Under the pieces are notes generated by a model that saw nothing but the letters and a program-made list of their open reading frames with translations, ran no database searches and was not told where the DNA came from. The position numbers were made by a program, and so were the translations under genes. A stretch of DNA of 64,000 nucleotides from Escherichia coli (GTDB taxonomy: Bacteria > Pseudomonadota > Gammaproteobacteria > Enterobacterales > Enterobacteriaceae), in NCBI RefSeq assembly GCF_003334305.1, contig NZ_QOWS01000007.1. One strand, 5' to 3'. Positions 1-52,835 of this stretch are shown piece after piece (within the stretch, counting starts at the first letter, position 1; every line of letters starts with the position of its first letter).

Positions 1-283
1 TGCCTTTTTTCTGATAAAAGTTGGCTGCACCTTTGATCGCCAGGTTGTCAGATTCGGTTGCACCAGAGGTAAAGACGATTTCACGCGGATCAGCGCCGAC
101 CAGATCGGCAATCTGATTACGGGCGATATCTACCGCTTCTTCAGCCTGCCAGCCGAAACGGTGAGAACGAGAGGCCGGGTTACCAAAGGTTCCGTCCATC
201 GTCATGAACTGCATCATTTTCTCGGCAACACGCGGGTCCACCGGCGTGGTTGCGGAGTAGTCGAGATAAATCGGTAATTTCAT
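1..283 (-). CDS. iscS: Cysteine desulfurase IscS, N-terminal part only (3-prime end lies outside the window)
   Basis: Minus-strand translation from ATG at 281-283 reads [24 protein letters not shown]...[12 protein letters not shown], recognised as the IscS N-terminus; frame runs off the window edge. Confidence 0.9.
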
Positions 284-394
284 TGCTCTATAAACTCCGT
301 ACATCACTCAATGCAAGGAATCAGGCTACCGGCTGGATGTACGACCGTGTTTACGGAGTATTTAGCACTCCGGCCTGATTCTGAATTCTTTTTA

Positions 395-883
395 TTAAGC
401 GCGTAACTTAACGTCGATCGCGTCTTGTGTGCGGGTGCGTGGCGCGTCGTGAGTATGCTGACGACCAGACACATCCAGCACTTCCTGGTTATTAACCAGT
501 TCGCCTAAAGTAATGTTGTTGAGAAAACCGGTGAGACGGTCGCTCAAATCACGCCACAGCGCGTGGGTCAGGCATTTATCGCCGCCCTGGCAGCCGCCTT
601 TACCCTGACAACGGGTGGCATCTACAGATTCGTCAACGGCGCTAATCACTTCGCCAACGGCGATGCTGCTGGCATCTTTGCCTAACAGATAACCACCGCC
701 TGGTCCACGTACGCTGGAAACCAGACCATTTTTACGCAGACGGGAAAACAGTTGTTCCAGATAAGAAAGGGAAATTCCCTGACGTTCGGAAATATCAGCC
801 AACGGTACCGGGCCCGCTTCAGAGTTGAGCGCAACGTCAAGCATTGCGGTCACGGCATAGCGCCCTTTAGATGTCAGTCTCAT
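395..883 (-). CDS. iscR: Fe-S cluster assembly transcriptional regulator IscR (Rrf2 family), 162 aa
   Basis: ORF track 395..883; recognised IscR sequence with conserved Cys residues; sits immediately upstream of iscS. Confidence 0.95.
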
Positions 884-964
884 GTCTTACTTCACCTCAA
901 ACTCGCCCCTGCCCGGGGTTTTTTATTGTAAAAGTGGGGGTATTGCATAGCAGGGTCAAGTCTG

Positions 965-1020
965 ACATTCCCGAGTAAATTGGTCAACTATTTACTTGAC
1001 TGATTTAGTCGGGTATTTAA
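965..1020 (-). promoter_or_regulatory. iscR promoter region with two IscR type-1-like operators
   Basis: Minus-strand reading gives ATACCCGACTAAATCAGTCAAGTAA and ATAGTTGACCAATTTACTCGGGAAT upstream of the iscR start, resembling the IscR type-1 motif as remembered. Confidence 0.55.
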
Positions 1021-1056: not shown

Positions 1057-1146
1057 TGTTGTCGGATGCGGTGTGAACACCTTATCCGACCTACGGTTCT
1101 GTACATTGTAGGCCTGATAAGACGCGTTAAGCGTCGCATCAGGCAA
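1057..1146. repeat. REP/BIME element (two REP units)
   Basis: cggatgcggtgtgaacaccttatccgacctac followed by gtaggcctgataagacgcgttaagcgtcgcatcaggca; typical imperfect REP palindromes between iscR and trmJ. Confidence 0.8.
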
Positions 1147-1152
1147 CTACTG

Positions 1153-1893
1153 TTATTCGGCCTTGTTACCTTTATTCTGCTGCTCAATAGAAGCCAGAAT
1201 CCCGCGCAGGATATTCAATTCCTGGCTTTCCGGGCGCGCACGGGTAAACAGACGGCGCAATTTATTCATCACCTGCCCCGGATGGTTTTCACGGATAAAA
1301 CCGGTTGCCAGCAGCGTTTGTTCCAGATGACCATAAAAACGCTCCAGATCATCGACCAGCGGATACGGCGTCTCTTCATGCTCGACCTGCTCGCCGTTTT
1401 CCTGAGTTGCCAGCCAGGCCATGCGCACTTCATAGGCAATAACCTGAACCGCCATCGCCAGGTTCAGCGAGCTGTATTCCGGGTTAGCCGCAATCGCGAC
1501 ATGATAATGGCATTTCTGCAACTCTTCATTGGTCAAGCCGACGCGCTCGCGACCAAACACCAGCGCCACCGGGGTATTTGCCGCTTCAGCGACGCTTTTC
1601 AGGCCGCATTCGCGCGGGTCGAGCATCGGCCATGGCAGCGTGCGGGAGCGTGCGCTGGTGCCCACCACCAGGCTACAACCGGCTAACGCTTCGTCGAGCG
1701 TATCGACGATGTGAGCATTACCAATCACATCGCTGGCCCCTGCTGCCAGGGCAATCGCCTGGGAGTCGGGTTTCACCAGTGGATTAACCAGCCACAGATT
1801 GGTTAATCCCATTGTTTTCATGGCACGGGCAACAGAACCCATATTGCCGGTGTGTGACGTCTCCACCAGCACAATTCGAATATTTTGCAGCAT
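1153..1893 (-). CDS. trmJ: tRNA (cytidine/uridine-2'-O)-methyltransferase TrmJ (SpoU family), 246 aa
   Basis: ORF track 1153..1893; recognised TrmJ/YfhQ sequence and conserved position next to iscR and suhB. Confidence 0.9.
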
Positions 1894-2011: not shown

Positions 2012-2815
2012 ATGCATCCGATGCTGAACATCGCCGTGCGCGCAGCGCGCAAGGCGGGTAATTTAATTGCCAAAAACTATGAAACCCCGGACGCTGTAGA
2101 AGCGAGCCAGAAAGGCAGTAACGATTTCGTGACCAACGTAGATAAAGCTGCCGAAGCGGTGATTATCGACACGATTCGTAAATCTTACCCACAGCACACC
2201 ATCATCACCGAAGAAAGCGGTGAACTTGAAGGTACTGATCAGGATGTTCAATGGGTTATCGATCCACTGGATGGTACTACCAACTTTATCAAACGTCTGC
2301 CGCACTTCGCGGTATCTATCGCCGTTCGTATCAAAGGCCGCACCGAAGTTGCTGTGGTATACGATCCTATGCGTAACGAACTGTTCACCGCCACTCGCGG
2401 TCAGGGCGCACAGCTGAACGGCTACCGTCTGCGCGGTAGCACCGCTCGCGATCTCGACGGTACCATTCTGGCGACCGGCTTCCCGTTCAAAGCAAAACAG
2501 TACGCCACTACCTACATCAACATCGTCGGCAAACTGTTCAACGAATGTGCAGACTTCCGTCGTACCGGTTCTGCGGCGCTGGATCTGGCTTACGTCGCTG
2601 CGGGTCGTGTTGACGGTTTCTTTGAAATCGGTCTGCGTCCGTGGGATTTCGCGGCAGGCGAGCTGCTGGTTCGTGAAGCGGGCGGCATCGTCAGCGACTT
2701 CACCGGTGGTCATAACTATATGCTGACCGGTAACATCGTTGCTGGTAACCCACGTGTTGTGAAAGCCATGCTGGCGAACATGCGTGACGAGTTAAGCGAC
2801 GCTCTGAAGCGTTAA
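2012..2815 (+). CDS. suhB: Inositol monophosphatase SuhB, 267 aa
   Basis: ORF track 2012..2815; recognised SuhB sequence including the WVIDPLDGTTNF motif region. Confidence 0.95.
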   Translation: MHPMLNIAVRAARKAGNLIAKNYETPDAVEASQKGSNDFVTNVDKAAEAVIIDTIRKSYPQHTIITEESGELEGTDQDVQWVIDPLDGTTNFIKRLPHFAVSIAVRIKGRTEVAVVYDPMRNELFTATRGQGAQLNGYRLRGSTARDLDGTILATGFPFKAKQYATTYINIVGKLFNECADFRRTGSAALDLAYVAAGRVDGFFEIGLRPWDFAAGELLVREAGGIVSDFTGGHNYMLTGNIVAGNPRVVKAMLANMRDELSDALKR

Positions 2816-12343: not shown

Positions 12344-12378
12344 ATGCCGGATGCGGCGTGAACGCCTTATCCGGCATT
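12344..12378. repeat. REP element
   Basis: gatgccggatgcggcgtgaacgccttatccggcat, canonical REP palindrome between convergent yphA and yphB. Confidence 0.85.
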
Positions 12379-29592: not shown

Positions 29593-29776
29593 AACAAAGC
29601 CGGGAATTACCCGGCTTTGTTATGGAATAAGGCGGTGCCTAACTCGACGTTTCGCCCGATGGTTGATATAGCTACGCTGATATCAGAAGTTGGACGGCAG
29701 GCACCTTGTTGTGCGTCATTCGAATTTTATGTAGCACGTCCCGAAGGGGCTGACATAAGTCGGTGAATGAGCCACT
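29593..29776 (-). ncRNA. glmY: Small RNA GlmY, about 184 nt
   Basis: Minus-strand sequence AGTGGCTCATTCACCGACTTATGTCAGCCCCTTCGGGACGTGC...AAAGCCGGGTAATTCCCGGCTTTGTTGT matches remembered GlmY, ending in a terminator hairpin directly upstream of glrK. Confidence 0.85.
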
Positions 29777-30109: not shown

Positions 30110-33100
30110 TTACCCCAACTGCTTACGCGCATTGCGGAAAATGCGCATCCATGGGCCATCCTCGCCCCAGTTTTCCGGATGCCAGGAGTTGCTGACAGTA
30201 CGGAAAACACGTTCCGGGTGCGGCATCATAATGGTGACTCGACCACTTTCAGTCGTAATCGACGTAATACCGTTCGGTGAACCGTTCGGGTTAGCCGGGT
30301 AGGTTTCAGTGACTTTGCCGAAGTTATCGACATAGCGCAGTGCCACCAGCCCTTTGCTTTCCAGTGCCGCCAGATGCGCCGCATCACGCACTTCCACGCG
30401 CCCTTCACCATGAGAGACAGCAATCGGCATTTGCGAGCCCACCATCCCCTGCAACAGCAGCGACGGGCTTTGGGTCACTTCAACCAGGCTGAAACGCGCT
30501 TCAAAGCGATCGGAGGTATTGCGCACAAAACGTGGCCACAACTCACTACCTGGGATCAGTTCGCGCAGGTTAGACATCATCTGGCAACCGTTACATACCC
30601 CCAGCGCCAGCGTTTGCGGACGGTGGAAGAAGGTTGCAAACTCATCGCGTACACGGTCATTGAACAGGATTGACTTCGCCCAACCTTCACCGGCACCCAG
30701 CACATCACCGTAGGAGAAACCACCGCACGCGACCAGGGCGTGGAAATCTTCCAGGCCCGTGCGTCCAGTCAGCAGGTCACTCATATGCACATCGATTGCA
30801 TCGAAGCCTGCACGGTGGAAAGCTGCCGCCATTTCAACATGCGAGTTCACGCCCTGCTCACGCAGCACAGCAACTTTCGGACGTGCGCCAGTGGCAATAT
30901 ACGGTGCTGCCACATCTTCGTTGATATCGAACGACAGTTTCACATTCAGGCCCGGATCGGCGTCGTTTGATTTCGCCTGGTGCTCCTGGTCAGCACACTC
31001 CGGGTTGTCACGCAGGCGCTGCATCTGCCAGGTAGTTTCTGCCCACCAGACACGCAACGTGGTGCGGCTTTCGCTGAATACAGTCTGCCCGTTGGCGGTA
31101 ATCACAAAACGGTCACCGGAAACCGCCTGCCCTACATAATGGACACAATCAGCAAGCCCATGCTGTGCCAGTACGGACTCGACCGCTTCACGGTCAGCGG
31201 CACGAACCTGAATCACCGCACCCAGTTCTTCGTTAAACAACGCCGCCAGGCGATCGTCGCCCAGAGAGGCAATATCCGCGTTAATGCCGCAATGACCAGC
31301 AAAGGCCATTTCCGCCAGCGTTACCAGCAGGCCGCCATCAGAGCGGTCGTGGTATGCGAGCAGCTTACGCTGTGCAACCAGCGCCTGAATCGAGTCATAG
31401 AAGCCTTTCAGTTGCGCGACATCGCGTACATCTGCCGGTTTGTCGCCAAGCTGACGATAAACCTGCGCCAGCGCCGTTGCGCCCAGCGCGTTATTGCCTT
31501 TGCCCAAATCAATCAGCAGCAGTGCGTTATCTTCGGTAGAAAGCTGCGGCGTGATGGTGTGACGTACATCTTCCACGCGGGCAAATGCAGAAATCACCAG
31601 CGACAGCGGCGACGTCATTTCGCGCTCTTCGTTACCTTCCTGCCAGCGGGTTTTCATCGACATAGAGTCTTTACCCACCGGGATCGTCAGGCCCAGCGCC
31701 GGACAAAGCTCTTCGCCCACGGCTTTAACGGCTTCATACAGGCCCGCATCTTCACCAGGGTGGCCTGCCGCCGCCATCCAGTTGGCGGAAAGTTTAATGC
31801 GTTTGATATCGCCAATCTGTGTTGCGGCAATATTGGTTAACGCTTCACCGACCGCCAGACGGGCAGAGGCGGCGAAATCCAGCAGCGCAACCGGCGCACG
31901 CTCGCCAATCGCCATCGCTTCACCGTAGTAGCTGTCGAGGCTGGCGGTAGTGACCGCGCAGTTAGCGACCGGCACCTGCCACGGACCCACCATCTGATCG
32001 CGCGCTACCATGCCAGTTACGCTGCGGTCACCGATGGTCACCAGGAAAGTTTTCTCCGCCACGGTCGGCAGATGCAGTACGCGTTTCACCGCGTCTGCAA
32101 TGGTGATCCCTTCACGGACCAGCGCATCGCCCTTCGCTTTCAGCGTTTGTACATCGCGGGTCATCTTCGGCGTTTTACCAAGCAGGACGTCCAGCGGCAG
32201 ATCGATCGGCTGATTATCAAAATGACGATCGTGCAGAGAAAGATGCAGTTCTTCGGTCGCTTCACCAATCACCGCGTAGGGTGCGCGCTCACGCTTACAC
32301 AGTTCGTCAAACAGCGGTAATTGATCGGCAGCAACCGCCAGCACGTAGCGTTCCTGGGATTCGTTACACCAGATTTCCAGCGGGCTCATGCCCGGTTCGT
32401 CGCTTAGAATATCGCGCAGTTCAAATTTACCGCCGCGTCCGCCGTCGCTCACCAGCTCCGGCATCGCGTTAGAAAGACCGCCCGCACCGACGTCGTGGAT
32501 AAACAGAATTGGGTTAGCATCACCAAGCTGCCAGCAACGGTCGATCACTTCCTGGCAACGACGCTCCATCTCCGGGTTGTCGCGCTGTACGGAAGCAAAG
32601 TCGAGGTCGGCATCAGACTGACCTGACGCCATGGAAGACGCCGCTCCGCCGCCAAGACCGATGTTCATTGCCGGGCCGCCGAGAACGACCAGCTTCGCAC
32701 CGACGTTGATCTCGCCTTTTTGTACGTGATCGGCGCGAATGTTGCCGATCCCGCCCGCCAGCATGATCGGTTTGTGATAACCGCGCAGCTCTTCGCCGTT
32801 GTGGCTGTTCACTTTTTCTTCATAAGTACGGAAGTAGCCATTCAGTGCCGGACGACCAAATTCGTTGTTAAACGCCGCGCCGCCCAGCGGGCCTTCGGTC
32901 ATGATGTCCAGCGCGGTGACAATGCGCTCAGGCTTACCGAAATCTTCTTCCCACGGCTGTTCGAAGCCAGGAATTCGCAGGTTGGAAACGGAGAAACCAA
33001 CCAAACCCGCTTTCGGCTTCGCGCCGCGCCCGGTGGCACCTTCATCGCGGATTTCACCGCCGGAACCGGTCGCCGCGCCCGGCCACGGAGAAATCGCCGT

Positions 33101-52736: not shown

Positions 52737-52835
52737 GCCTGATGCGCTACGCTTATCAGGCCTACGTGGCTCATGCAATATATTGAATTTGCACGATCTT
52801 GTAGGCCGGATAAGGCGTTCACGCCGCATCCGGCA
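52737..52835. repeat. BIME (two inverted REP units) downstream of srmB
   Basis: gcctgatgcgctacgcttatcaggcctac ... gtaggccggataaggcgttcacgccgcatccggca. Confidence 0.8.

Follow-up and report, generated by a model that had tools for sequence, protein, structure and literature searches.

The iscR promoter (PiscR) of Escherichia coli K-12 reportedly contains two type-1 binding sites for IscR, A and B, described by Giel et al. in 2006 and 2013 from the Kiley laboratory, and MG1655 is said to be the strain in which that laboratory characterized them. Type-1 sites follow a 25-bp consensus, ATASYYGACTRWWWYAGTCRRSTAT (PMC6599224, PMC3899308), and have TT in one half-site (positions 5-6), whereas type-2 sites have CC (PMC8561392). 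The isc promoter carries two type I motifs through which holo-IscR represses iscR (PMC8262890), and two type I motifs are also found upstream of iscRSUA in Yersinia (PMC4055776). In Pseudomonas aeruginosa PAO1, IscR binding to the iscR sites is cluster dependent and yields a two-site footprint; site B, which holds TTGACC, spans -18 to -42 from the start mapped by primer extension (PMC6599224, PMC3899308). The PAO1 promoter has the same arrangement as the one described below, with two abutting 25-bp type-1 sites, a TTGACC -35 hexamer in site B and site A directly upstream, but in PAO1 site B is the primary site and site A is of low affinity and possibly cooperative (PMC6599224). PMC6599224 cites E. 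coli work for independent binding of IscR to sites A and B, and mentions a minor, nonconserved “site C” in E. coli that is absent from PAO1. The same regulator also acts at type-2 sites (hyaA, sufA, ydiU), which likewise overlap the -35 element but have a different consensus (AWARCCCYTSnGTTTGMnGKKKTKWA), are bound by apo-IscR, and can activate transcription.

We analyzed a 64-kb stretch of E. coli chromosome (referred to here as the window) with the gene order iscS, iscR, a 269-bp spacer, trmJ, and suhB. The spacer (positions 884 to 1152) is matched in all 5426 complete E. coli genomes that we searched, and the best-matching record has it flanked by trmJ and iscR, with iscS, iscU, and iscA following. 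From the boundary of the upstream repeat (BIME) to the iscR ATG (positions 1056 to 884), a stretch that takes in the entire promoter and 5′ UTR, the window does not differ from MG1655. The operator is thus the same as that of K-12, and the order trmJ, BIME, PiscR, iscRSUA is shared as well. The cognate regulator is encoded directly downstream: the iscR open reading frame matches the NCBIfam equivalogs NF008110 (344.7 bits; cutoff, 275) and TIGR02010 (220.2 bits), and its translation retains C92, C98, C104, and H107, the [2Fe-2S] ligands, together with E43, the residue that discriminates between type-1 and type-2 sites (PMC6599224, PMC3899308). The features of the locus are collected in Table 1.

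Table 1. Features of the iscR promoter and its surroundings, in window coordinates
Feature	Positions	Strand	Basis
iscS, 5′ part	1-283	-	ORF list
iscR coding sequence, 162 aa; regulator binding both sites	395-883	-	ORF, RefSeq annotation of the identical locus, NCBIfam
iscR 5′ UTR with GAGG Shine-Dalgarno	884-950	-	Read from sequence; identical to MG1655
Small GC hairpin in minus-strand RNA, CCCCGGGCAGGGG	905-919	-	Flagged as terminator-like on the plus strand
Inferred transcription start (±2 nt), 68 nt upstream of iscR ATG	951	-	-10 position and P. aeruginosa geometry
-10 hexamer CAGACT, 3/6 match to TATAAT, 17 nt downstream of -35	959-964	-	Phylogenetic footprint
IscR type-1 site B, promoter-proximal, ATAGTTGACCAATTTACTCGGGAAT	967-991	-	Consensus, three matrices, probe match, orthologues
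-35 hexamer TTGACC, left half of site B	982-987	-	Conservation and P. aeruginosa equivalent
IscR type-1 site A, promoter-distal, ATACCCGACTAAATCAGTCAAGTAA	992-1016	-	Consensus, three matrices, orthologues
One BIME unit, between trmJ stop (1153) and iscR promoter	1058-1147		Inverted repeats, fold, copies
REP, arms 1061-1074/1077-1090	1061-1090		Inverted-repeat search
Inverted REP, arms 1112-1125/1131-1144	1108-1144		Inverted-repeat search
trmJ	1153-1893	-	ORF list; stop at 1153
suhB	2012-2815	+	ORF list

Read in the direction of iscR, the promoter region runs ...GGTTAA ATACCCGACTAAATCAGTCAAGTAA ATAGTTGACCAATTTACTCGGGAAT GTCAGACTTGACC..., so that sites A and B abut with a gap of 0. An earlier reading of the window, made from the sequence only, had placed two adjacent 25-bp motifs within positions 965 to 1020. 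Both lie inside that interval, with margins of 2 and 4 nt, and their exact limits are 967 to 1016. The same reading had assigned the motifs to the minus strand, which is correct as the direction in which iscR is read but not as a true orientation. The published consensus is its own reverse complement, and our consensus scan placed both sites on the plus strand; because the motif is palindromic, the strand given to the sites is only a convention.

When the window was scanned with the published consensus at three or fewer mismatches, only two matches were returned across the 64 kb, namely site A (1 mismatch) and site B (3 mismatches); the next match appears only at 7 mismatches, and 100 dinucleotide shuffles gave an expectation of 0.00 matches. 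Because these sites had themselves contributed to the published consensus, we built matrices without any sequence from the E. coli isc promoter. Matrix 1, a symmetrized matrix of four DNase-footprinted P. aeruginosa sites (iscR A, iscR B, nfuA, and tpx), scored site B at 22.1 bits and site A at 19.0 bits; no other position in the window exceeded 11.1 bits. The shuffle maximum under this matrix averaged 13.8 bits (standard deviation, 1.7; largest, 19.5), with 0 of 200 shuffles reaching 22.1 and 2 of 200 reaching 19.0. Matrix 2, assembled from 119 distinct sites in orthologous iscR promoters with Escherichia left out, gave 33.6 bits for site A and 30.3 bits for site B, with 4.6 bits for the next best position. 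Sites A and B thus match the type-1 consensus and score above background in matrices that were not trained on them.

Matrix 2 was also applied upstream of two other E. coli genes, erpA (yadR) and nfuA (yhgI), where the same 25-bp palindromic motif was recovered as a single outlier in each case (15.7 bits with the next at -16.8 for erpA; 27.6 bits with the next at -1.8 for nfuA). These two promoters differ from that of iscR in having one site rather than an abutting pair, and in the placement of the site relative to the gene start. The single outliers indicate that the motif marks the IscR regulon and not merely the iscR promoter. Matrix 3 left out the isc promoters altogether and used E. coli erpA, E. 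coli nfuA, P. aeruginosa nfuA, and P. aeruginosa tpx; although partly circular, since its E. coli sites were chosen with matrix 2, it scored site A at 21.8 bits and site B at 21.5 bits, ranks 1 and 2 among 63,976 positions, with 0 of 200 shuffles reaching either score. A two-site matrix made from P. aeruginosa nfuA and tpx alone contained too little information, and with it neither the window sites nor the E. coli nfuA site was top ranked. The sequence-only reading had named a calibrated IscR type-1 matrix scan as the check on its proposal, and in that scan both sites stand far above background, at ranks 1 and 2 with all three matrices.

We looked for further type-1 sites near the pair. In E. 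coli no third site was found in register: offset -25 scores -33.9 and offset +50 scores -67.8. Among the remaining positions near the promoter, the most type-1-like is TACCCCCACTTTTACAATAAAAAAC on the minus strand at positions 918 to 942, about +10 to +34, whose score of -15.1 falls below the 99.9th percentile of the window (-11.4). This segment could be the weak, nonconserved “site C” that PMC6599224 mentions for E. coli. A full-text literature search turned up no paper that prints the two site sequences.

The position of the sites relative to the promoter also agrees with what the sequence-only reading had claimed, namely that they overlap it: an invariant TTGAC(C), the -35 hexamer, lies inside site B, and a -10-like hexamer, CAGACT, begins 3 nt past it, so that site B covers the -35 element and most of the spacer. 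Across 80 aligned loci, the TTGAC columns within site B show 1.7 to 2.0 bits of conservation. Directly after site B, a conserved “GtcAgAcTt” preserves the -10 positions A2 (1.7 bits), A4 (1.2 bits), and T6 (1.9 bits), and conservation then drops to approximately 0. A scan of positions 860 to 1200 for the sigma-70 consensus called no promoter, because CAGACT matches only 3 of 6 positions. From the placement of the -10 hexamer and the P. aeruginosa geometry, we infer that transcription starts near position 951, which corresponds to about 2,662,199 in MG1655. If so, site A would extend from approximately -65 to -41 and site B from approximately -40 to -16, within 2 nt of the P. aeruginosa arrangement (site A, -43 to -67; site B, -18 to -42). 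The published coordinates of the E. coli sites, which we take to be -65/-41 and -40/-16, are in line with such a start. The hexamer positions thus place site B where a bound repressor would occlude the promoter, on the presumption that transcription begins at this point.

To follow the operator across species, we used an IscR protein genome scan that yielded 80 loci from Enterobacterales, Vibrionales, Alteromonadales, and Aeromonadales. The footprint set comprised 80 upstream regions, those of the window and 79 loci, and in each we took the two best nonoverlapping matrix matches no more than 400 nt from iscR. The spacing between these two matches is exactly 25 bp in 75 of the 80 loci and 26 bp in two more. 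An orthologue of site A occurs at the same offset in 75 of the 80, and site B is conserved in 79. When the regions are aligned by anchoring on the pair, a conserved block runs from 1 nt before site A, over both 25-mers, to the -10-like hexamer. The abutting pair is therefore conserved in orthologous promoters of four orders. Within the species, 5425 of 5426 complete E. coli genomes carry the 66-bp operator region (positions 955 to 1020) once, and in 5369 of the 5426 its identity reaches 99% or more. We also observed one complete genome with no match to this region and a few, such as H22, that match it only from query base 12 onward.

Conservation of this kind invites a reading in which the 50 bp are recognized by RNA polymerase only, as a -35 element preceded by an AT-rich, UP-like element, with no repressor operator involved. 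The strongest conservation is indeed that of TTGAC, the -35 element, and site A sits where UP elements do. However, the conserved columns are dyad symmetric over both 25-mers and include the right half of site B, CTCGGGAAT, which falls in the spacer, where polymerase makes no base-specific contacts. Recognition by polymerase also does not account for the same motif being the one outlier at two unrelated promoters, those of erpA and nfuA, or for a matrix without isc-promoter sequence ranking the two sites 1 and 2. In P. aeruginosa, IscR gives a DNase footprint on the orthologous sites, and, according to the cited literature, an IscR footprint has already been reported for the identical MG1655 sequence. 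We therefore consider recognition by polymerase only to be highly improbable.

We considered whether the sites might instead belong to the type-2 class or to another Rrf2 regulator such as NsrR, in which case the promoter would be controlled by apo-IscR or by nitric oxide. IscR does recognize a second class of motif, and the IscR open reading frame is weakly similar to NsrR and other Rrf2 models. Yet nowhere between 930 and 1055 does the type-2 consensus fit with fewer than 8 mismatches in 24 positions, and the TT half-site, which is said to disfavor apo-IscR, is present in both sites, as ATAGTTGAC in site B and TTACTTGAC in site A (reverse complement). Inspection of the operator for a GATGC core, which we take to be part of the NsrR motif, found none. 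In Yersinia, moreover, an isc type-1 site was not a competitor for apo-IscR binding (PMC4055776). Assignment of the sites to either of these classes appears very unlikely. Chance resemblance in an AT-rich intergenic region has nothing in its favor beyond the general AT-richness of promoters and is refuted, to the point of being negligible, by the consensus scan (0.00 matches expected), the matrix shuffles (0 of 200 reaching the scores), and the abutting pair in 75 of 80 orthologous loci.

Based on the motif matches and their significance, the promoter position, the abutting conservation, the regulon-wide occurrence of the motif, and the identity with MG1655, and taking binding, cluster dependence, and repression from the literature, we regard it as almost certain that this region is the operator of the iscRSUA-hscBA-fdx promoter, made up of two abutting type-1 sites that each accommodate a dimer of [2Fe-2S]-IscR and serve negative autoregulation. 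The sequence-only reading had proposed IscR type-1 sites and autorepression by holo-IscR, a proposal borne out by the scans, the IscR open reading frame downstream, the MG1655 identity, and published repression.

Direct binding data are available for nearly the same sequence. A 2025 paper from the Kiley laboratory used a 30-mer probe named “type 1 (iscRB)”, AAATAGTTGACCATTTTACTCGGGAATGTC, which bound [2Fe-2S]1+-IscR, the reduced holo form, with a Kd of approximately 22 nM, compared with more than 1000 nM after cluster oxidation (PMC12594620). The probe is identical to positions 993 to 964 of the window at 29 of 30 bases. The single difference lies where the probe reads CCATTTTAC and both the window and MG1655 read CCAATTTAC; it reflects either a printing error or an intentional change, and the T variant of the probe occurs naturally in several Enterobacteriaceae (e.g., loci L006 and L009). 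In Yersinia, ChIP-seq detected no peaks at predicted type I sites (PMC8262890), which suggests that occupancy in vivo is not universally demonstrable.

In the model that we propose, IscR bound at site B would cover the -35 hexamer and all but the last 2 nt of the spacer and thereby exclude RNA polymerase. Bound at site A, at approximately -41 to -65, IscR would cover the zone of the alpha C-terminal domain and UP element and may add to the repression. When the supply of Fe-S clusters meets demand, holo-IscR accumulates and represses the isc operon, whereas under O2, oxidants, or iron limitation IscR is clusterless or its cluster is oxidized, type-1 binding is lost, and the operon is derepressed. 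Because the operon opens with iscR and also encodes the Isc machinery that builds the cluster of IscR, this arrangement constitutes a negative feedback loop.

The sequence-only reading had also placed a REP/BIME at positions 1057 to 1146, separating the promoter from trmJ, and two REP hairpins in inverted orientation were found there. Both REPs are GC-rich imperfect palindromes of approximately 35 bp and match the REP core, which we take to read …GGATGCG…N…CTTATCCG/CAGGCCTAC. As RNA, the unit folds into two hairpins (-46.2 kcal/mol; z = -7.45). The pair has the properties of a BIME, in that the two REPs are mutually inverted, extragenic, and multicopy. The same REP core occurs elsewhere in the window at 12348 to 12373 and 52807 to 52832, and in a search of E. 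coli genomes the 269-bp spacer matches at a median of 3 places in each, with a maximum of 8.

Strains differ in the repeat block that separates trmJ from the iscR promoter. The window has one BIME unit and a 269-bp spacer, whereas MG1655 (locus L085, 1633 to 2091) has three units in tandem and a spacer of 451 bp, and strain 2313 (locus L082, 473 to 780) carries an unrelated G-rich repeat, …CCCCTCGCCCCTTCGGGGAGAGGGTTAGGGTGAGGGG…, in the BIME slot. At least 80% of the 269-bp spacer is covered in just 3991 of the 5426 E. coli genomes. In every strain comparison, homology resumes at about position 1056, and we take this point as the upstream boundary of the functional promoter.

The region between the start and the iscR gene showed several features of its own. 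The block CTGCTATG, just past the inferred start, is conserved within Enterobacteriaceae. The iscR leader of E. coli and its close relatives is approximately 40 nt longer than that of other lineages, and the distance from site B to the iscR ATG is 83 nt in E. coli versus 37 to 45 nt in Vibrio, Proteus, and Yersinia. Throughout Enterobacteriaceae and Erwiniaceae, a hairpin ends 20 to 22 nt before the iscR ATG, with stems that differ in sequence (CCCC/GGGG, GCCC/GGGC, TCCGG/CCGGA, and GCCCG/CGGGC). Folding of the individual sequences showed the leader hairpin to be no more stable than in shuffled UTRs, and RNAalifold returned no consensus pairs for the 5′ UTR, MAFFT having misaligned the stems. 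No Rfam family was found over positions 884 to 1056. The sole Rfam match nearby is RF01517, “iscRS”, an iscR stability element in the iscR-iscS intergenic region (positions 285 to 394, minus strand; 138.1 bits), which is a known posttranscriptional control point of the isc operon.

Elsewhere in the window, matches at the Rfam gathering threshold were GlmY (29629 to 29776), ohsC (38974 to 39050), rncO (42462 to 42676), AsrC (45460 to 46291, antisense to rseC), and ES036 (52758 to 52800), the last of which adjoins the REP copy at 52807 to 52832. The best match to the type-2 consensus in the window, ATCGCCCTTCGCTTTCAGCGTTTGTA, lies on the plus strand at 32126 to 32151 with 4 mismatches in 24 positions.

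Among the orthologous promoters, three loci have one more type-1 site, exactly in register and 25 bp farther upstream than site A: Erwinia psidii (L030; 7.1 bits), Pantoea stewartii (L034; 16.7 bits), and “Candidatus Pantoea persica” (L038; 21.4 bits). We speculate that the abutting pair is a deeply conserved composite unit, extended to three sites in Erwinia and Pantoea, that could form a phased, higher-order IscR array tuning the Fe-S set-point by lineage, and/or that the hairpin in the 5′ UTR is an undescribed cis-acting element. We regard this extended reading as doubtful, with odds well against it.

The feature as a whole is the E. coli iscR operator, which is already known, and no new biology is claimed for it. 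The case can instead serve as a positive control, in that a reading of raw sequence placed a characterized operator to within a few bases. For the organism, this operator is the sensor input of the Fe-S homeostasis circuit, through which expression of the housekeeping Isc pathway follows the redox state of IscR and its occupancy by the cluster. If the phased-array idea were true, the stoichiometry of the IscR array might tune the set-point of Fe-S homeostasis in different lineages.
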